From IMG/VR virus record IMGVR_UViG_3300032397_000006, positions 32,001 through 96,000 of that record: 64,000 nt of DNA, one strand, 5' to 3'. The stretch's first letter is position 1. Each line of letters opens with the position of its first letter. Positions 21,300 through 30,803 of the stretch are shown here, in pieces. The translations under genes and the position numbers were made by a program. This DNA is from a virus. Below the pieces are notes generated by a model, which was given only the letters and a program-made list of their open reading frames with translations, made no database searches and was not told where the DNA came from.

Positions 21300-22040
21300 T
21301 CAGAGCTCGTCGAGCGCGATATGAGCCGCTTCGTGATCGGGCAGCCCTTGCGAGACGAGGCGGTAAAAATCACTCAGCAGTTTCGGCGCCAGTATGCGCG
21401 ACGAGTAAGAAATCATGTAATCAGCCCACGTATCGTAATCGCTAGGCACCGTCGCAAATCCTGTCCATTCCATATGGCAGCCGCGGCAGTGGAAGCGCCC
21501 TACCGCACACGCGCTCGAGAGCGAGATATGAAGGCAGCGCTCGTAAAGCTCCTCGTGCAGATGCCGGTACTCGACTTCGCGCCCTTCGCTCAGCGCAGCC
21601 TTTATGGCCATTTGCATACCAGGAGAAACACCTCGATCCCTGTAAACAACGTGTGCCGCAGAGGCCGCACGAGCCCAGGCAAAGCCCGCATTCATACCCT
21701 GTGCACGCTCGCCCGGATCGAGATCGTCGAGCGCCTCTGTGTACATCTGGTGCGACGCGAAAGGGGCCTCGCCACGCAGGATGCTGTCTCGAATACAGCG
21801 CTGCAGATATTCCCTATTCGCTGCGACGTCTACAGCTTTATTCTCTGTCGCACCGCTCGCGTAGGGACTCTCGATCACTACGAGCCTAGGCACGCGCGGC
21901 ACAACGAGCGTTTCGCTCGGCAGCGGTTCACCCAGACAGTTAACAGCGTGCGTCTGCTCCATCCGAGACAAGCGATAGTCAGGATCGACGATGGAGTAGT
22001 AAATAGAGTTGCGACATTTTTTGCAGATGAAGTGAGCCAT
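21300..22040 (-). CDS. nucleoside deoxyribosyltransferase-like fold protein (DUF4406/DUF7768-type) with Cys motifs
   Basis: LVVIESPYA..N..Y...CIRDS..RGEAPFASH..Y...ER..G...VVY.DRGVS.GM. Confidence 0.7.
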   Translation of the reverse strand: MAHFICKKCRNSIYYSIVDPDYRLSRMEQTHAVNCLGEPLPSETLVVPRVPRLVVIESPYASGATENKAVDVAANREYLQRCIRDSILRGEAPFASHQMYTEALDDLDPGERAQGMNAGFAWARAASAAHVVYRDRGVSPGMQMAIKAALSEGREVEYRHLHEELYERCLHISLSSACAVGRFHCRGCHMEWTGFATVPSDYDTWADYMISYSSRILAPKLLSDFYRLVSQGLPDHEAAHIALDEL

Positions 22041-22474
22041 TACGCCTCTTTTGATAACCAATATTTTCGCACCACGCGAGGCGACACACCGAGCTCACGC
22101 CCCGCAGCGCGTGCCGAACCTGAGTGCACTCGGATCCTGCGAATAAGCGACGAGGGCAGTTTCTTGCACGCGCGCTTGTCCTCTTTCGATCGTGTGTTCT
22201 GGAATGACGCGGGTACCTTACGCGGCTGATCTGTACGCCCGTGCTCGAGCAGCCACGATGCCAAAGGCATGCACGCGAAACCCTCGTTGATCACCCAGCG
22301 TGTCTCGAAATCATCCTCGCTGATTAGCGCGGCGACCGGACGCACGACTACTTCGACACTTCCGCGTGTACCTTGGTAATGCCAGCCGAAACCATTTCGC
22401 ACCGCGCACCATTCCCAGTCCGGAGCTCGCTCGCGAAGGTAGGCCGCGTTCACGGTATCGACTCCGCGTCCCAT
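22040..22474 (-). CDS. hypothetical protein with C-terminal HTH
   Basis: GSARAAGRELGVSPRVVRKY. Confidence 0.55.
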   Translation of the reverse strand: MGRGVDTVNAAYLRERAPDWEWCAVRNGFGWHYQGTRGSVEVVVRPVAALISEDDFETRWVINEGFACMPLASWLLEHGRTDQPRKVPASFQNTRSKEDKRACKKLPSSLIRRIRVHSGSARAAGRELGVSPRVVRKYWLSKEA

Positions 22475-23492: not shown

Positions 23493-24137
23493 CTACTCGT
23501 TATCTAGTATCGCGAGCGCTGACAGTAACTGCACAGGCGCGTACGCAAATGAAACGACGTCAGCGTGAGACATAATGCGCCCTCGCAACGCGTGCCCCAC
23601 ACCGAGATCGAGCACGTCTACTTTGGTGCCTGATGGAGCTCCGCAAAGCGCGGGATCGGAGGTCACGAAATACGTGCGGCATGCGACGGGACGCACCGCG
23701 TACACGCTGCACGTATTGTCCGGCCGCAAGAACACGCAGGCTTCGTTTTCCTCCCACCACAACGTGCACAGTGCGTCGTTCTTTTTCGTGTAGTCGTCGA
23801 GGTCTTCGGTGCTCGCCAATTCCGTGTCAGGATTATCGCCGAACGTCTTCGCGTAATGCGGCTTGAGCTTTTCGACTTGAGCTAGCAGCTGCTTTCGCTT
23901 CGCGCGTAGCTTGTGCGGATAGGCCGCTGCGATGGCGAGAGCTTCCTCCGCGCTGATCAGAATCAGCATCTTGCAACAGTGCGCGCAGCCTTTTGTACAC
24001 GAGGGCTCGGCCTGCGCGAGCACCGCATCCATCGCAAGATCGGCGCGTAAGTATTCGTGCGTCAGCTGCTGTCCGATTATCGCCAACGAGCGCTTTCTTG
24101 ATTCAGGGACACCAGGAGCTTTCATGTGTCCCCTCAT
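23493..24137 (-). CDS. YkgJ-family CxxCxxCC Zn/Fe-chelating protein
   Basis: CTKGCAHCC ... CVFL....CSVY.VRP.ACR.Y. Confidence 0.88.
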   Translation of the reverse strand: MRGHMKAPGVPESRKRSLAIIGQQLTHEYLRADLAMDAVLAQAEPSCTKGCAHCCKMLILISAEEALAIAAAYPHKLRAKRKQLLAQVEKLKPHYAKTFGDNPDTELASTEDLDDYTKKNDALCTLWWEENEACVFLRPDNTCSVYAVRPVACRTYFVTSDPALCGAPSGTKVDVLDLGVGHALRGRIMSHADVVSFAYAPVQLLSALAILDNE

Positions 24138-24805
24138 AGCGCGTCGAGCTGCTTACTCTTGAATTGGCCAGGGTTGCTCCGCGGTGAGTTGCGGTATTTC
24201 TTGATCGTACTCTCTGCAACGCCGAGCTCTTTCGCCGCGGCCTTCACGGTGCCTTCGTGTTGTTTGATTTGCGTGATTAGCTCCGCAGACAGCACCTTGC
24301 GCGTGGACGCAGGTAGCTTGTGCCCCGTGACGGCACCGTGGCTCACGCCACGCTTAATGCAACCTACGTGCGCGGGAGACAGATCGTATTTCTGCCCGAT
24401 CTCCTGCAGCGTCCCCTTTGCAGCGTAGATCTCGAGCACCTGTTTCTTGGTCAGCTTTTCCGGCATCTTTTCCCCCAATGTGGCCGCGAACGTCTTGTGC
24501 TGCTCTCCTACTGTCACCATTTTACCGAAGCGCCCACCGAGAGCAGCAAAGCGCAGCGCTATATTGTTGCCCGGGCCTGCCTGATTTACGAACCAACCGA
24601 CGCACACTTGCTCGGCACCCGCCTCTGTTTCGTGGCACGCCATTAAGCGTAAGGCGCCGTCGCTGTTATAACCGCGATTCTCTGGCGTCGCGATCGTGCG
24701 CACGAGCGCAGCGTGTTTCGTTGCGCAATAGTTACCCGGGATATCGCGCTCGGGAACAGTGCTCGTTTTCCACGGGCACGCTTTACACTGCACGCGCGTT
24801 TTCAT
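24134..24805 (-). CDS. DUF6283-like Cys domain fused to tandem HTH motifs
   Basis: CKACPW...MACH...C.GW; LQEIGQKYDLS; VKAAAKELGVAESTI. Confidence 0.7.
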   Translation of the reverse strand: MKTRVQCKACPWKTSTVPERDIPGNYCATKHAALVRTIATPENRGYNSDGALRLMACHETEAGAEQVCVGWFVNQAGPGNNIALRFAALGGRFGKMVTVGEQHKTFAATLGEKMPEKLTKKQVLEIYAAKGTLQEIGQKYDLSPAHVGCIKRGVSHGAVTGHKLPASTRKVLSAELITQIKQHEGTVKAAAKELGVAESTIKKYRNSPRSNPGQFKSKQLDAL

Positions 24806-24817
24806 TCGATCACCTCA

Positions 24818-25081
24818 CTAGGGACTCAAAACGCTGCGTACCGCGCAGTCCTTCGACTCCAGCAGCTTGCGCAACGCTACCGTCGCCTCAGCGTTGGCAG
24901 GCATTGTATCCGCCATCTCGTACGCGAGCTCGCAGTAAGGCCTACTCACTTCCTGCAGGTTCTTCGGCAAGTGCTCGTACTTAAAGAAGCTCAAAAGCTT
25001 CCGTACGACGGGGTTATCGGACGCACAACCATTCACCTTGTACAAATCCTCAACGCTTTGCTTTACATCATCGTTACTCAT
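24818..25081 (-). CDS. small helical-hairpin protein, putative Acb2/Tad1-like nucleotide sponge
   Basis: FF.Y.HLP..LQ.VS.P..ELA...P.NAE.TVALRKLLESKDCAVR; adjacent to the Tad1 homologue. Confidence 0.55.
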   Translation of the reverse strand: MSNDDVKQSVEDLYKVNGCASDNPVVRKLLSFFKYEHLPKNLQEVSRPYCELAYEMADTMPANAEATVALRKLLESKDCAVRSVLSP

Positions 25082-25127
25082 TCTGTCACCTTTCTACACT
25101 GCACGTCCTCATCGCTAAGCGTGCGCG

Positions 25128-25499
25128 TCATATAACGTTCGTGCCTTCCACACCGCGTGCCACGCGCGCCCTCGTTCGTTCCTGCAGCCAGCGCATTGCA
25201 TTAAGCAAGCACGCGAGCACTTCGCGGTTATCCTCGCAAGCAAACGCTCCGGACTGAAATCCATCCATGCGATCAATAAGGATCGCTAAAAGCGCTTCGT
25301 TCGTAACGCCGTTGACGCCGACTTCCTTGATCGGGCCTCGCTGGAACTCGATGTCGCAGCCCTGAGGGTCGCCGTGCTTAGGCTGAAACCGAACCTTGTA
25401 GACGTGGCTCGCGTTGCCGTACTGCTCATCGCGCGCGTCCGCAATGATCGTGATCGCCTCGTTGCAGGCGTTGCTTTTATGTGACGTTACTTCGTGCAT
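25128..25499 (-). CDS. tad1: Thoeris anti-defence Tad1-family sponge protein
   Basis: H.Y...IEFQRGP..E.GVNGV....LL.I..DR...FQSG.F.C.DN....WL..RT..R..RGVEGT follows the Tad1 pattern along its length. Confidence 0.85.
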   Translation of the reverse strand: MHEVTSHKSNACNEAITIIADARDEQYGNASHVYKVRFQPKHGDPQGCDIEFQRGPIKEVGVNGVTNEALLAILIDRMDGFQSGAFACEDNREVLACLLNAMRWLQERTRARVARGVEGTNVI

Positions 25500-25524
25500 T
25501 ACTCGAGTACCCTTTCGCTATGGC

Positions 25525-25761
25525 TTACGGCATCACTCCCACAGACACGATCTCCGCGTAGCCCTGTGAGCGGATCGCGTGCTCTGCGAATTTCGCTCCG
25601 TGGAATACGCGCACGACATAGCAGCCGTCGCGACGCTCGGGCCCCTCAGGCGTCCCGCAACCCACGACGCGCGCCATACATACAGGCAGCATGGTTAGCG
25701 TCGCGTCGAGCGCATCAGGATTCGCCACGCGCACCAAGATCTCTACAATTTCATCCGCCAT
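25525..25761 (-). CDS. hypothetical protein
   Basis: ATG 25761 downstream of a degenerate cassette with TTGACA. Confidence 0.55.
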   Translation of the reverse strand: MADEIVEILVRVANPDALDATLTMLPVCMARVVGCGTPEGPERRDGCYVVRVFHGAKFAEHAIRSQGYAEIVSVGVMP

Positions 25762-26005
25762 ACGCACCCCGCAATTTCGGCGGTTATCGCGCGCAAGGGT
25801 AAGCTTGTCAAGCTGCGTGATTGCGTAGCAGGGCAAGCGCCTACGCATTCGCTACGCAATCTTTACGGGCCGCGCCTGCGCTGCGTGTACGCCTCATAGA
25901 GGCGCAGCGCGACCTTGAACAGGGCAGCACTCGCCCGCGAGCCTAGGGCGCCTGCAAGGAACAGCGCGAGGGCAAGCAACGCGTACAAAAGCCAGTCGTG
26001 CACTG

Positions 26006-26647
26006 TCAGAGATTCCACGCTCGTGCCTCCGCGCTATCGCGCCCTCCGGACATCTCCCACACAAAAGCGTTCGCGTGCAGCACGTCGCCGTCTGCGGCCA
26101 GCCCCGTGCACATTAATAGCACGTGCAAAGTCTCGTGCCGGATCGACGAAAGCACGTGCGTATTGTCTGGCGCGAGGTGCGCCGTGTAAACGACCGCTTG
26201 CCACGGTGCGTGGCTGAAAACCGAAGTTATGCAGCTCGTTGCACGCAGCGGATCGTCGTGCCTCAGCGCAGCAGCACACGTCTCTGCAAATGCCATGGAG
26301 TTGAGCTCACGCACAACGCGCAAATCGTCAATGCAGCTCGACCTTGGCATCGGGAGGCCTACGGCAAGCCACGCGTTACGCGCCGAAATGATCGCTGCTG
26401 TGTCCTGAATATCGCGCTCCGGTGTACAGCTCTCGAGCAGCACGATCACGCACACGAGAAACACGAACGCAGCGAAGGCCCACACCAGGCGGCGCACACG
26501 TTGAATGCGTTCACGCTCGCGCTCACGAAGTTGAGGGTGTTCGAACAGCACGCGATTACGGGCAGCGTTTCGAGCTCGGCGCCGTTCGAATTCATTCGTC
26601 GACAGTCGAATCGCGCGCAGTGCTCGCTCTCGTTCCGGACGGCTCAT
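26006..26647 (-). CDS. membrane-anchored protein with HExxH motif
   Basis: TM segment LVWAFAAFVFLVCVIVLL; RHETLH. Confidence 0.55.
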   Translation of the reverse strand: MSRPERERALRAIRLSTNEFERRRARNAARNRVLFEHPQLRERERERIQRVRRLVWAFAAFVFLVCVIVLLESCTPERDIQDTAAIISARNAWLAVGLPMPRSSCIDDLRVVRELNSMAFAETCAAALRHDDPLRATSCITSVFSHAPWQAVVYTAHLAPDNTHVLSSIRHETLHVLLMCTGLAADGDVLHANAFVWEMSGGRDSAEARAWNL

Positions 26648-26656
26648 GATTCCCCC

Positions 26657-27154
26657 TCAGTCGTCATAGGCAGCACGCAGTAGTTTACGCGCAGTGTGGA
26701 GCCTCGAGTACACGGTGCCTACCGGGATATCGAGCTCTGCCGCGATATCCTCGCACGTGTAGCCCATGGCAAACGACAGCAGCGCGTCTCGGTAGTGTGC
26801 GGGTATCGCGTCGAGCTCCGCACGTAGGCGCGCTACGGCTTGCTCTTGTCCTAGCTGCGCGTCCTGTGATGGCGTGCTGGCGACACGGTAGCGTGCGTAG
26901 CTCATTTCGCTGAATATCTTACGCTGTCTTGCTCGCCGCATATTCGCCGCGATTCGAATTGCGATAGCGCCAAGCCACGTGCGCGGTGCTGCAGCGCCTG
27001 GGCGATATCCGCCGTAGTGATTCGCCACAATAAACACGGACTGCACGCCGTCGTCGACCGCGGACGGGTGCACGCCTGAACGCAACAGTAAGGCCGCAAC
27101 GTAGTGCGAGTGCTGCCGGAATAACTGCCCCGCGTCTGCGGCTGCGTGTTCCAC
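26657..27154 (-). CDS. ECF (sigma-70 family group 4) RNA polymerase sigma factor
   Basis: Region 2 VDDGVQSVF..RTWL..IA; region 4 GYTCEDIAAELDIPVGTVYSRLHTARK. Confidence 0.92.
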   Translation of the reverse strand: MEHAAADAGQLFRQHSHYVAALLLRSGVHPSAVDDGVQSVFIVANHYGGYRPGAAAPRTWLGAIAIRIAANMRRARQRKIFSEMSYARYRVASTPSQDAQLGQEQAVARLRAELDAIPAHYRDALLSFAMGYTCEDIAAELDIPVGTVYSRLHTARKLLRAAYDD

Positions 27155-27170
27155 AGCTGCAAGAGTAACA

Positions 27171-27419
27171 CTACGGCAACTTTCGGATCTCGCGCTGAAT
27201 CTCTAGCAGGAAGTTCTGCACTTCCTTGGCTAAGCCTGAGAATTTCGGCTGCAACGAAACGAGACGCAAGTCTTGATCAAATTCGAGCATTTCCCCGCAC
27301 GCTACACAGAACGTAGCGTCCCCCGCTTCAGGCGCACTCTCGCCGGCAACGCGCATTGCGCCTACTGCCGCAAGCGGTGCGCTGCACGTCGGGCACAGGT
27401 CTCTGTCAGGCACTTTCAT
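27171..27419 (-). CDS. small Zn-ribbon protein
   Basis: CPTC...P..GD...CVACG. Confidence 0.6.
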   Translation of the reverse strand: MKVPDRDLCPTCSAPLAAVGAMRVAGESAPEAGDATFCVACGEMLEFDQDLRLVSLQPKFSGLAKEVQNFLLEIQREIRKLP

Positions 27420-27937
27420 TTCGTAGCTCTCATGCGATTCTCGAGTCCAGCGATGTCCCTATCGCGCAGGTGCACTTGCTCTGTGAGCGCGTCGACCGTG
27501 GCGTGCAGTCGGATAAATTCGCGGTCCCTCTGCGCGAGCACCGTTTGCAGCCTGACGATCTCTTTATCCTGTGCCTCGACCACCAAGCGCGTCACCTGCA
27601 GACGTAACGTGTCAGCGAGCGAAACAGGATCGGAAGGCTCCGCTGCAGTAATTCCGCGCATTACGTTACGTGCGAGCACAAGGTAGTGGAGCGCATCCTG
27701 TTTATGCAGCACCTCAACCATGCGTAGCCGATCGATCAGGATAGCGAGCAGTACGTCCTCAGTGATTCCATTGACGCTGCCGTTCGGCATTTCGCCTTCG
27801 TGAAACTCAAGTACGAAGCCGCAGCACTTGTTATCCGGGCCGCGCCACGTCACGGCATAGACGCGACTGGCGGTCACATCATCACCGTTACCCGTGATTG
27901 CGATCGCTGAATTGCTCGCGTGTTTTACGTCGCGCAT
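27416..27937 (-). CDS. diverged Tad1 paralogue fused to a coiled coil
   Basis: LEFHEG....SVNGITEDVLLAILIDRL aligns with 25128-25499; C-terminal heptads. Confidence 0.65.
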   Translation of the reverse strand: MRDVKHASNSAIAITGNGDDVTASRVYAVTWRGPDNKCCGFVLEFHEGEMPNGSVNGITEDVLLAILIDRLRMVEVLHKQDALHYLVLARNVMRGITAAEPSDPVSLADTLRLQVTRLVVEAQDKEIVRLQTVLAQRDREFIRLHATVDALTEQVHLRDRDIAGLENRMRATK

Positions 27938-27942
27938 TAGCG

Positions 27943-28131
27943 CTAGCCTTTCCGCTTGCCCGGAGCTCGGATCACGAGGCGTGAACCATCCGTGAATTCG
28001 ATTGTCGTTCCTACGCCCGGATTAAGCCTGCGGTAGGCCTGCACGAGCTGCGCGGCTGCAGTGACCATATTATCCGCGCGAATGTTGTACGCCCACGCGT
28101 GCTCTGGCGCTTCGTCCTCAGTCGACATCAC
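27943..28131 (-). CDS. hypothetical protein
   Basis: Coupled ORF. Confidence 0.5.
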   Translation of the reverse strand: MMSTEDEAPEHAWAYNIRADNMVTAAAQLVQAYRRLNPGVGTTIEFTDGSRLVIRAPGKRKG

Positions 28132-28553
28132 GTCACCCTCAGTGCGCGTAGTGCGCAGTCCCGGGCCTCGAGCAGTCTGCGCACTGCAACCACTGACTCA
28201 GCGTTCACGGTCAGGTATTGCGCGAGCATTTGCGCAAACTCGAAAAAGTCGCGAGTTACGTTCGGAGATTCAGGGCTGTACTCGAAAAAGCTCAAGATGG
28301 TTTGCACTGAGCTGTGCTCGCTTGCTGCACGTAGGCCGTGCTGCACGGCGCTGCGATCCAGGCGCTGCGAACGTAGCGCACAGTCCTGTGACTCAAGTAG
28401 CTTGCGCACCATCGTTGTTGCCTCTGCATTTGCCGGCAGCTGTGCGGCGATTACGCGTGCGAATACTCCAAACAGTGTTTCCTCGAAAAGCTGTAGCAAG
28501 CTCTGCACTGAGGGGTGCTGTGCCGCCGTTACCTTGTTATCGTCAGGTGTCAT
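28128..28553 (-). CDS. tandem-duplicated paralogue of the 24818-25081 hairpin protein
   Basis: Two repeats: PANAEATTMVRKLLESQDCALRS and VNAESVVAVRRLLEARDCALRA. Confidence 0.75.
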   Translation of the reverse strand: MTPDDNKVTAAQHPSVQSLLQLFEETLFGVFARVIAAQLPANAEATTMVRKLLESQDCALRSQRLDRSAVQHGLRAASEHSSVQTILSFFEYSPESPNVTRDFFEFAQMLAQYLTVNAESVVAVRRLLEARDCALRALRVT

Positions 28554-29949: not shown

Positions 29950-30513
29950 TTAGCTAGTCTCCATTCCCCACGCGTCCCAGCCGCTGACACGCGCACGCGC
30001 AAACAATTCAATTCGCGGCCTGTCGCCGTACAGACTCACGATCTTGTCGCGAATCACCGGAGGCTTCTCCGAGTGCCTTCCGCGACCGTGCAGCACGACC
30101 TGCCCCATTGCACAGTCCAGCAACGGAAAAGGTCGCCCGCGAGGCCTCAGCGTCGCCAGCAGGCATAATTCAGTCGTGGGCTTGGTGCACGTCGGAGGCA
30201 CGCCTTGCCCGTTGATTATCGCGCCTGATTTATTCGTTTTCACCCACACGAACGCGACACCTCGATAGTGCAAGCCCCACGATGCGATCGCGCGAAATGC
30301 GAGGTCCGCACGAGGACACGTGCACCACAGAAACAACGCACCTTCGCGCCCTCGAAACAGCGCGCGGATCGGCATGTCGCAAATCTCGTCGATCGACATC
30401 AGATCGTAGTGCTTACCCGCAGCTCCATCCTTTGTCGCCGAGCCGTACATAGGCCAGGGCGGATCGGCGTAGATCAGATCGTAGCCGGCTGCGTGCTCAC
30501 TGAGCGCGATCAT
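29950..30513 (-). CDS. MT-A70 family N6-adenine methyltransferase
   Basis: YADPPW, HY.LMS.DEI, LFLWCT, FVWVK, HSEKP, IELFAR, GWDAWG; ATGA start at 30513. Confidence 0.92.
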   Translation of the reverse strand: MIALSEHAAGYDLIYADPPWPMYGSATKDGAAGKHYDLMSIDEICDMPIRALFRGREGALFLWCTCPRADLAFRAIASWGLHYRGVAFVWVKTNKSGAIINGQGVPPTCTKPTTELCLLATLRPRGRPFPLLDCAMGQVVLHGRGRHSEKPPVIRDKIVSLYGDRPRIELFARARVSGWDAWGMETS

Positions 30514-30803
30514 TTGCGACACCGCGGCATCCTGCGCGCTAGCGGCACGGTGCGAAGTGCTGCCGTGTGCTCGCGTAGAAAATCGAGCACGTACCGCGTG
30601 GCCTCGGCCTTCGCGTCCTCGATTCCCTTGTGCTCTAACGGCACGCGCGAGATCCCTAGTCGGGGGCAGCTCAACAGCCACTGCGTAGCGGCAAAATCAA
30701 TATGCCGGTGCACGCACAGCTCGCACTGCCCGAATTTCACGCGATGCGCGTACGCGATCGTCGTGCCTGCCCTCGTGTCCTCGATCCAATCGCCCACGCT
30801 CAC
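30510..30803 (-). CDS. hypothetical protein
   Basis: Coupled ORF. Confidence 0.5.
   Translation of the reverse strand: MSVGDWIEDTRAGTTIAYAHRVKFGQCELCVHRHIDFAATQWLLSCPRLGISRVPLEHKGIEDAKAEATRYVLDFLREHTAALRTVPLARRMPRCRK

Follow-up and report, generated by a model that had tools for sequence, protein, structure and literature searches.

A Tad1 gene, a small helical hairpin protein as a candidate immune-signal sponge, and divergent relatives of both within 3.7 kb of a phage genome

Organisation of the locus and the Tad1 gene

The window analysed is a stretch of 64,000 nucleotides of a 104-kb phage genome, in which four ORFs, here named A, B, C and D, are all encoded on the minus strand between positions 24818 and 28553, each with a purine-rich SD-like site 6–12 nt upstream. 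ORF B (25128–25499) encodes a 123-aa Tad1 protein and ORF A (24818–25081), located 46 nt downstream of it, encodes 87 aa and belongs to a family of helical hairpin proteins carrying the motif RKLLE[SA]KD. ORF D (28128–28553, 141 aa) is a tandem double of the same hairpin domain, and ORF C (27416–27937, 173 aa) joins a Tad1-like N-terminal half to a helix of about 70 residues. Between D and C lies an ORF of 62 aa (27943–28131, minus strand), which has no family match in the Pfam/NCBIfam and PHROG searches; its GTG start overlaps the stop codon of ORF D, and it ties D and C into one translationally coupled run. The stop codon of ORF C is overlapped by the ATG of an 82-aa zinc-ribbon-like ORF (27171–27419, minus strand), the match of which to DZR is weak (E 0.003, under the Pfam cut-off). 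Across the whole 104-kb genome there are exactly three domains of the hairpin type and two genes of the Tad1 type, and all of them lie within this 3.7-kb segment. No promoter or terminator signals above the shuffled background were found at the locus. Pfam and NCBIfam scans assigned no family to any of the four ORFs, and the models PF13876 (Acb4), PF21825 (Sequestin), PF24729 (Acb2), PF11195 and PF25185 had no match anywhere in the genome. A quite possible, if still tentative, reading of the stretch is that of an accessory region carrying a single working sponge for immune signals and, probably, a module that partners it.

ORF B is by homology a canonical Tad1 (Thoeris anti-defence 1) protein: it matches CmTad1 (PDB 8kbb) with E 1.7e-16, residues 8–122 being aligned to 14–131, the structures 7uav and 8kbg with E 8e-10 (8.4e-10 for 7uav) and phrog_2428 with E 1.2e-33. 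The pocket residues F82, N92, R109 and R113 of CbTad1 and its C-terminal lid have been described (10.1101/2023.11.15.567273). Their equivalents in ORF B are F81, N91, R108 and R112, the RGVEGT lid is retained at 115–120, and these pocket and lid residues recur in 82–91 of 95 Tad1-like sequences. The earlier note, which had called a Tad1 homologue here, was thus correct. Since Tad1 is a hexamer (10.1101/2023.11.15.567273), the ORF B product should by homology also be a hexamer, sequestering gcADPR and cyclic di- and trinucleotides.

The hairpin family of ORF A

ORF A matches phrog_1761 (E 3.5e-27) and phrog_5120 (E 6.9e-19), a widespread family of helical proteins of 60–80 aa for which Pfam has no model; the main texts of the literature searched contain no paper on these PHROG numbers or on the RKLLE[AS]KD motif. 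The family is very widespread and very conserved. We found 74 stand-alone homologues of 60–87 aa and at least 250 longer ones, and its 296 phage records include phages of Vibrio, Erwinia, Acinetobacter, Gordonia and Mycobacterium, so the hosts span at least two phyla (Pseudomonadota and Actinomycetota). Members from phages of Actinobacteria and of Proteobacteria are about 50% identical to each other, and the family sequence is almost frozen. ORF A carries all the columns that are invariant in an alignment of 40 sequences, among them the polar residues H37, E65, R71, K72, E75, K77, D78 and R82. Its AF2 model (pLDDT 90.5) comprises a short helix, a loop and two long antiparallel helices. Searches with this model against the PDB (Foldseek) and with VIA gave no significant match, the results being generic helical bundles only (best Z 7.4) and none of the chains listed belonging to a sponge.

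Two of the seven families of sponges were discovered by the very fusion logic that we apply to the hairpin family. Among the 120 best long hairpin proteins, the domain is recurrently fused to the established sponges Tad1 (12 cases, in both domain orders) and Sequestin (4–5), as well as to Clp_N (19), MazG/dCTPase-like proteins (9–10) and Tad3 (3); other partners include proteases, nucleases and outer-membrane barrels, many of them singletons. The recurrent fusion of the hairpin to Tad1, Sequestin, Tad3, MazG-like pyrophosphatases and Clp_N is new here. In Tal et al. 2025, the Sequestin list (Table S1) contains at least 12 further entries with the hairpin motif, the ones displayed being hairpin–Sequestin fusions. 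At the level of neighbouring genes, 2 of 80 independent Tad1 loci have a hairpin gene immediately next to Tad1, where the rough chance expectation is about 0.1 because the hairpin family is present in 0.6% of phage records. Seen from the hairpin side the adjacency is rare, with Tad1 at one of 80 loci; a conserved hairpin neighbourhood was rejected, the neighbours of these loci being heterogeneous (terminase, portal and others).

The family has also been picked out independently. Tal et al. 2025 include in their Table S2 at least seven hairpin members, chosen as short proteins predicted to form homo-hexamers and passing a filter for sponges with basic pockets at the interfaces between protomers. 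These seven homologues inhibited none of five systems (type I and type II Thoeris, cGAMP-CBASS and two Pycsar systems), the readout being that culture collapse was absent; only five of the seven were introduced into the cCMP-Pycsar strain (Tal et al. 2025).

As of April 2026 the sponge families number seven: Tad1, Tad2, Acb2, Acb4, Sequestin, Lockin and TadIV-1 (PMC13243611). Against Acb2, Tad1, Sequestin, Acb4 and TadIV-1 the hairpin domain gave no significant match in sequence or fold, with weak hints towards Acb2 only. The hhalign comparisons with Acb2, Tad1, Sequestin and TadIV-1 all fell at E 0.05–0.7 with probabilities of about 1% or less (Tad1, E 0.74; Sequestin, E 0.2; TadIV-1 as T4 Vs.3, E 0.26 over 11 columns), and the Sequestin model PF21825 likewise had no match in two other hairpin-bearing phages.

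The divergent second pair

Two hairpin-domain matches (E 1.8e-13 and 1.6e-15) bear out the earlier description of ORF D as an internally duplicated hairpin protein. Both halves match phrog_1761/5120, and ORF A and the two halves match each other (E 2e-15 and 2e-12). ORF D is the sole tandem form among the 74 short homologues, and both of its copies are divergent. In repeat 1 the model positions of the Y.HLP..LQ.VS.P segment are missing, and in repeat 2 YS-P replaces Y.HLP; the HLP loop, invariant in the family, is thereby gone from both. In the last helix, Q/R stands in place of the invariant K and L in place of the invariant V.

The earlier description of ORF C as a Tad1-like domain without the FQSG.F and RGVEGT segments and fused to a coiled coil also holds well. 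ORF C is 39% identical to ORF B over 69 residues (BLASTP E 1e-10), and phrog_2428 matches its residues 21–74 only (E 3e-6). Both segments are absent, and in the HMM alignment ORF C is gapped at all ten pocket and lid columns. Residues 104–172 are modelled as a single long helix with pLDDT above 90, probably a coiled coil, while the N-terminal half appears as a beta-sheet with two helices at low confidence (pLDDT 41–68). With this model Foldseek found nothing significant in the PDB, Tad1 chains appearing at ranks 7, 11 and 17 with E of about 0.2 only. ORF C is nearly an orphan, with fragment-level relatives only among 1.8 billion representatives. The nearest of these are separate proteins, P0197 for the N-terminal half (48–51%) and P0196 for the helix part (55%), together with P0199; both P0197 and P0199 come from elsewhere. 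No usable match was obtained in the ESM Atlas with residues 1–105, and no close relative was found in IMG/VR. Elsewhere there is a Tad1-like lineage without pocket residues (P0197, P0199 and P0201).

The two pairs had been described as a duplication. Paralogues of both genes are indeed present, but the relative rankings do not bear out a recent event: the ORF D repeats are no closer to ORF A than to homologues from other phages, and among Tad1-like sequences ORF B ranks ninth for ORF C while ORF C ranks last of 95 for ORF B. A recent in-genome duplication of A/B into D/C was rejected, C and D being nearer to proteins of other phages. The suggestion that the paralogues widen the range of ligands or may hetero-oligomerise finds no support in the residues, given that ORF C is without every Tad1 pocket and lid residue and ORF D without the HLP loop. 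Judging from their sequences, C and D look remodelled or degenerate rather than retuned.

Possible functions and relation to known sponges

The earlier proposal that the hairpin family is another sponge draws real but indirect support from the fusions to Tad1, Sequestin and Tad3 and from the independent shortlisting; its weaker side is that seven homologues were negative in the screen and that no significant link by fold or profile to Tad1, Acb2 or Sequestin emerged. We consider it plausible but unproven, because the fusions and the shortlisting are set against the negative screens and the lack of a significant fold match. On this view ORF A would add a second module of anti-defence to the locus, in all likelihood a small homo-oligomeric, by prediction hexameric, binder of a nucleotide immune signal beyond the five tested, and its pocket may be built from the conserved R, K, E, D and H residues together with the aromatic residue preceding the HLP loop. 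The B–A gene pair may represent the split form of the Tad1–hairpin fusions of other phages. ORFs C and D would be old divergent relatives that have lost the canonical binding residues yet remain intact and coupled in translation, and their role is probably a different one, possibly played by oligomers formed via the long helix of C and the internal pseudo-dimer of D. In its full form, the proposal is possible but less likely than not: the RKLLE[SA]KD hairpin would be a further sponge family, a mini-hexamer for a messenger beyond the five screened (for example cA3/cAAG, cA4/cA6, N7-cADPR, 2'3'-type dinucleotides or dITP), which phages would pair with, or fuse to, Tad1, Sequestin or Tad3 so as to deal with two pathways at once, with D and C as a remodelled second pair directed at a different target. 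A hexamer is found in Tad1 and predicted for the hairpin family, a parallel that we counted in favour of a sponge module; the very mixed list of partners we counted against it, since a general-purpose module also fits.

Tad3–Tad8 bind ThsB or ThsA, Tad3 being a ThsB binder, and the fusion of the hairpin to Tad3 and, with high frequency, to the protein-binding domain Clp_N would also suit an anti-defence protein that blocks a host immune or proteostasis protein instead of a small molecule. The negative results in five signal-based screens are in line with such a function, and the strictly conserved surface charges could equally form a protein interface. We nevertheless find it unlikely, as the identity of about 50% between phages of Actinobacteria and Proteobacteria needs a near-universal target, whereas defence proteins are rarely so conserved, and if the hairpin inhibited one of the five tested systems directly, the screen should have revealed that as well. 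Still less likely is that the hairpin serves its fusion partners as a general oligomerisation or stabilising scaffold without a ligand of its own. The extreme mixture of partners with its many singletons, the predicted hexamer and the fold matches to generic helical bundles only would all fit a scaffold, but most members stand alone as proteins of 60–80 aa, which a pure scaffold leaves unexplained, and the invariant H, E, R, K and D residues exceed the needs of packing.

The family might instead be a shortened divergent branch of Acb2, in which case ORF A would be a cyclic-oligonucleotide sponge of a known family. Over 34 columns the C-terminal helix of the hairpin shows 35% identity to T4 Vs.4 (hhalign E 0.049), PF24729.2 gives E 0.03 for 2 of 40 members, PF24729 occurs on 10–24% of the members of the nearest ESM-Atlas clusters, and ranks 9 and 11 in BFVD are "Acb2/Tad1 hairpin domain" proteins (probability about 0.9, E 0.5–0.7); both are helical-hairpin protomers with hexamers solved or predicted. 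Against these hints, a 9-sequence Acb2 alignment gave only E 0.15 over 16 columns, the family HMM retrieved no Acb2 chain from the PDB at E up to 10, and PF24729 was silent on ORFs A and D, the rest of this genome and 49 hairpin-bearing contigs although it scores T4 Vs.4, our positive control, at 2.2e-20. With cGAMP-CBASS also uninhibited in the published screen (Tal et al. 2025), a branch of Acb2 seems improbable. As for the second pair, it is rather doubtful that C and D are decaying remnants without a function of their own. The stripping of all pocket and lid residues from C and of the family-invariant residues from D, and the near-orphan status of C, would be expected of remnants; both, however, are open over their full length and have SD sites as well as stop–start overlaps with their neighbours, the C helix has a high-confidence model and a stand-alone relative of 55% identity, and the pocket-less Tad1-like lineage exists elsewhere.

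Returning to the sponge proposal, the hairpin family is a strong candidate in view of its presence in phages of at least two bacterial phyla, its near-frozen sequence, its three anti-Thoeris fusion modules and its prior shortlisting. The locus adds a natural pair of Tad1 and hairpin, a natural tandem in the form of a pseudo-dimer, and a pocket-less Tad1 on a coiled coil, and these three forms could guide the choice of ligands and oligomers. If nothing binds, sponge fusion and the prediction of a hexamer with a basic pocket would be insufficient to call a sponge.

Among known systems, Tad1 (CmTad1, 8KBB–8KBD; CbTad1, 7UAV, 7UAW and 8KBE–8KBH) aligns with ORF B over its full length; the 123 aa of ORF B are a typical length, and there is no notable difference. 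ORF C shares with Tad1 the N-terminal sheet and the LLAILIDRL helix, but the five-residue FQ.G.F region is missing, none of the pocket and lid residues remains, and where Tad1 has its C-terminal hairpin ORF C has the single long helix. Acb2 (T4 Vs.4, 7UQ2; PaMx33 Acb2, 8H2J; PF24729 Acb2_Tad1_hairpin) is, like the hairpin family, a short phage protein with two long antiparallel helices after an N-terminal segment bearing aromatic residues, and the last helices of the two share a similar A..KL.E....A.R.V pattern. The helices, however, are about 35 residues long in Acb2 and about 20 in the hairpin family, the similarity stays under all significance thresholds of the HMM and profile–profile comparisons, and 3'3'-cGAMP CBASS stayed active against the tested hairpin homologues. 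Sequestin (PF21825, T4 Y16O) is likewise an all-helical phage protein of 60–80 aa and was discovered via its fusion to known sponges; it is also a frequent fusion partner of the hairpin domain. The two differ in that they share no sequence similarity, and Sequestin is a dimer or tetramer binding 3'cADPR (Tal et al. 2025) whereas the hairpin homologues had no inhibitory effect on type I Thoeris. The candidates of Table S2 (for example Ga0105238_10000067168 and Ga0196981_100024141) are members of the ORF A family and share with ORF A both the F.Y.HLP..LQ.VS.PF and the RKLLE[AS]KD motifs. Those candidates are metagenomic stand-alone genes assayed in isolation, whereas ORF A adjoins a Tad1 gene in a genome that also carries its tandem, degenerate relative.

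Gene order in the accessory region

The source record is 104,085 bp long and complete by CheckV, the window corresponding to its bases 32001-96000; its GC content is about 59% and the minus strand carries nearly all long ORFs. All four ORFs of the earlier note are present at the coordinates claimed, and each has an SD-like site. In minus-strand order, ORF D (28553 to 28128), the tandem hairpin protein, comes first and is followed by a 62-aa ORF whose GTG overlaps the stop of D, by ORF C (27937 to 27416), a Tad1-like protein with a long helix, and by a zinc-ribbon-like ORF of 82 aa that begins with an ATG overlapping the stop of C. Then come an ECF-type sigma factor (26657-27154, Sigma70_r2 and r4_2), a 213-aa protein, ORFs of 51 and 107 aa, the Tad1 gene ORF B (25499 to 25128) and, after a 46-nt gap, ORF A (25081 to 24818), the single hairpin protein. 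The sigma factor and the 213-aa protein, which has one hydrophobic segment, occupy 26006-27154 (minus strand) between both Tad1/hairpin pairs.

The stretch sits inside a run of small genes whose character seems accessory or regulatory rather than structural. Around it are genes for a DUF6283+HTH protein (24134-24805), a CxxCxxCC protein (23493-24137) and, 3 kb downstream, a DUF7768 protein (21300-22061, minus strand, E 2e-23). Just upstream lies an MT-A70 methyltransferase gene (29950-30681, minus strand, E 2.9e-19), likely serving self-methylation or anti-restriction. Genome-wide profile searches yielded exactly three hairpin domains, one in A and one in each half of D; the only Tad1-like genes were the two known ones, B and C.

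A canonical Tad1 and a pocket-less relative

The identification of ORF B (123 aa) as Tad1 was borne out by matches to CmTad1 (8kbb, full length, E 1.7e-16), CbTad1 (about 8e-10) and phrog_2428 (1.2e-33). In CbTad1 the pocket for gcADPR and cyclic dinucleotides consists of F82/N92 and R109/R113, its lid of residues 116-122, and the hexamer has two additional trinucleotide sites (Li et al., bioRxiv 10.1101/2023.11.15.567273). Pairwise alignment places the pocket and lid equivalents of ORF B at F81, N91, R108, R112 and RGVEGT (115-120). The HMM alignment of 95 Tad1-like sequences has the same residues in these columns in 82-91 of them, the final T of the lid in 71. ORF B is an ordinary, canonical Tad1; that neither the Pfam scan nor the genome search with PF24729.2 reported it is taken as a limit of these models, casting no doubt on the protein. 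The C-terminal half of a solved phage protein of 230 aa ('gp184', PDB 8y6v chain I) also matches ORF B 46-120 (E 1.9e-12), with both FACEEN and GTEGT conserved, and phrog_22140 and phrog_23843 have the same layout, so that larger proteins also contain Tad1-like C-terminal halves.

Residues 6-71 of ORF C (173 aa) are 39% identical to B (E 1e-10) and include the common LLAILIDRL helix, after which the FQ.G.F segment is deleted in C; C has also lost its counterpart of N92, and another sequence stands in place of the R..R..RGVEGT tail. The description of C as lacking the FQSG.F and RGVEGT segments holds, all ten key Tad1 columns being gaps in the HMM alignment. The AF2 model comprises four strands and two helices of low confidence and one helix that spans 104-172 (pLDDT >90). 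In the Foldseek comparison suggested by the earlier note, Tad1 chains ranked 7, 11 and 17 for this model at E ~0.2; with a match so weak and a fold of such low confidence, the Tad1 assignment of C rests on sequence.

The relatives of C were only fragment-level in an exhaustive search of 1.8 billion representatives. One of 102 aa (P0197) is 51% identical to its N-terminal half, keeps LQNGPLAC.EN and ends ahead of the lid; another of 79 aa (P0196) is 55% identical to the helix part, and the lid is absent from both P0199 and the tandem P0201. Two repetitive proteins among the matches were regarded as spurious. ORF B is only ninth among the matches of C, and C is the last of 95 for B. Given this ranking and the fragment-level relatives, ORF C is placed in a rare and older Tad1-like lineage without the pocket, here joined to a coiled-coil-type helix. 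In P0201 (258 aa, metagenomic), a second example of this lineage, the lid-less module is tandemly duplicated within one protein.

The hairpin family and its fusion partners

ORF A (87 aa) matches phrog_1761 (3.5e-27) and phrog_5120 (6.9e-19) and no model in scans of Pfam and NCBIfam. Its stand-alone homologues (n = 74, 59-142 aa) share the consensus LL.FF.Y.HLP..LQ.VS.PF..LA......LP.NAE.TVALRKLLESKDCAVRSVL, with H37, E65, R71, K72, L73, L74, E75, K77, D78, V81 and R82 invariant. The AF2 model (pLDDT 90.5) shows a short helix, a loop with Y.HLP and two antiparallel helices of about 20 residues. By tblastn, 296 of 50,697 phage records carry the family; identity is about 50%, and every match is annotated as hypothetical. 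Among these records are phages of Vibrio, Erwinia (jumbo), Acinetobacter (T4-like), Gordonia, Mycobacterium, Brevibacterium and roseobacter (N4-like). In the T4-like Acinetobacter phage 133 the hairpin gene (L001:3078-3272) lies between rIIA and the topoisomerase gene, within the early region; PF24729 (Vs.4-type Acb2) has no match in that genome.

ORF D (141 aa) is indeed internally duplicated, as its two domain halves in the genome profile search confirm, and it is the sole tandem form among the short hairpin homologues. Both repeats appear degenerate: the model positions of Y.HLP..LQ.VS.P are absent from repeat 1, YS-P replaces Y.HLP in repeat 2, and the invariant K77 and V81 are changed to Q/R and L. 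The repeats are 56% (over 36 columns) and 42% (over 60 columns) identical to A, and neither is nearer to A than to homologues from elsewhere. Given this and the ranking of C, the view of B/C and A/D as recently duplicated pairs was not upheld. Nor did the proposed widening of ligand range find support, since the loss of canonical residues in C and D speaks against simple retuning of a pocket. That both frames are intact and translationally coupled speaks against pure decay.

There are at least 250 longer hairpin-bearing proteins, and in the best 120 the partners were defined by excising the hairpin domain and clustering the remainders. The most frequent were Clp_N (19/120), Tad1 in both orders (12; Tad1-hairpin in P0113 and P0082, hairpin-Tad1 in P0132 and P0161) and MazG/dCTP-pyrophosphatase-like domains (9, plus one MazG), followed by Sequestin PF21825 (4-5), an outer-membrane barrel (4), Tad3 PF25185 (3) and many singletons (DUF6166, trypsin-like, nuclease and others). 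Tad1 and Sequestin are 3'cADPR sponges. Tad3 acts directly on ThsB, blocking it (PMC13728456). The hairpin domain is recurrently fused to anti-Thoeris and nucleotide-handling domains. Two homologues share a domain of about 70 aa at the N-terminus, ending in YISWSP.DVF..Y and having no Pfam or PDB sequence match; it is joined to the hairpin alone in P0031 (142 aa) and to Sequestin and the hairpin, as a triple fusion, in P0176 (219 aa).

Sponge candidacy of the hairpin family

Sequence and profile comparisons placed the hairpin family in no known sponge family. PF24729 (Acb2), PF21825 (Sequestin) and PF13876 (Acb4 in the citation of Tal et al.) have no match in the genome, whereas T4 Vs.4, the positive control for PF24729, scores 2.2e-20. 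The hhalign E values were 0.74 against Tad1, 0.2 against Sequestin, 0.26 against TadIV-1/Vs.3, 0.049 against T4 Vs.4 alone and 0.15 against a 9-sequence Acb2 alignment, and the family HMM found no sponge chain in PDB at E up to 10. That the family is a divergent, distant Acb2 is hinted at weakly by a last helix similar to its counterpart in Vs.4 (35% identity in 34 columns), PF24729.2 matches in 2/40 hairpin members (E 0.03), PF24729 on 10-24% of members of the nearest ESM-Atlas clusters, and 'Acb2/Tad1 hairpin domain' proteins at BFVD ranks 9 and 11. Such a distant relationship is possible, at a low probability.

The family has been a sponge candidate before, and the earliest published tests of it were negative. 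The hairpin motif occurs eight times among the 124 candidates in Table S2 of Tal et al. 2025 (bioRxiv 10.1101/2025.07.12.664507). The pipeline behind that list admits a protein only if it is short, has a homo-oligomer model of high confidence and shows several positively charged pockets where protomers meet. In seven of the eight rows (Ga0075156_1000059123, Ga0105238_10000067168, Ga0376690_0012638_6060_6341, Ga0134127_1000015879, DTR_864865_68, Ga0196981_100024141 and Ga0268264_1000035966) the predicted oligomer is 'hexamer' in six and 'dimer/hexamer' in one, and culture collapse is 'n' for all seven in each system transformed into; the cCMP-Pycsar strain received only five of the seven. The reach of the screen is limited by its testing genes in pairs, in heterologous hosts and solely in liquid culture, and by a transformation success that the authors put at about 80%. 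At least 12 further hairpin-motif entries occur in Table S1, the Sequestin list; those displayed are hairpin-Sequestin fusions carried by prophages in Burkholderiales and in other hosts (10.1101/2025.07.12.664507). In literature searches neither RKLLE[AS]KD nor the PHROG numbers turned up in the main text of any paper, and the sponge literature examined gives the family no name.

The sponge function proposed in the earlier note is partly supported: the fusions to Tad1, Sequestin and Tad3 and the predicted basic-pocket hexamers favour it indirectly, and the seven negative homologues oppose it. A new sponge family with a ligand outside the signals of the five systems screened (type I and II Thoeris, cGAMP-CBASS and two Pycsar systems) is a tentative reading; an inhibitor that targets proteins seems improbable, and a generic oligomerisation scaffold less probable still.

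Tad1 adjoins the hairpin gene in 1/80 hairpin loci, and the hairpin gene lies directly upstream of Tad1 in 2/80 Tad1 loci (L145:3270-4420 and L116:319-997). In L145 the hairpin stop overlaps the Tad1 start codon; the long Arg-rich N-terminus of this hairpin ORF looks like an over-extended call. The adjacency is rare, yet above the roughly 0.1 expected by chance from the 0.6% record frequency, a rough estimate and no formal test. The remaining neighbours at the 80 hairpin loci are heterogeneous, as usual for accessory genes; at 3/80 unrelated viral loci a DUF7768-like gene neighbours the hairpin gene at a distance of up to 2.5 kb (e.g. L013:1669-2004).

The favoured reading of ORF A is an anti-defence role, in first place as a small sponge of a messenger outside those already screened; a hexamer, as predicted for the family, would sit well next to hexameric Tad1 or in one chain with it. 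Since Tad1-hairpin fusions exist elsewhere, the B-A gene pair would be their split version.
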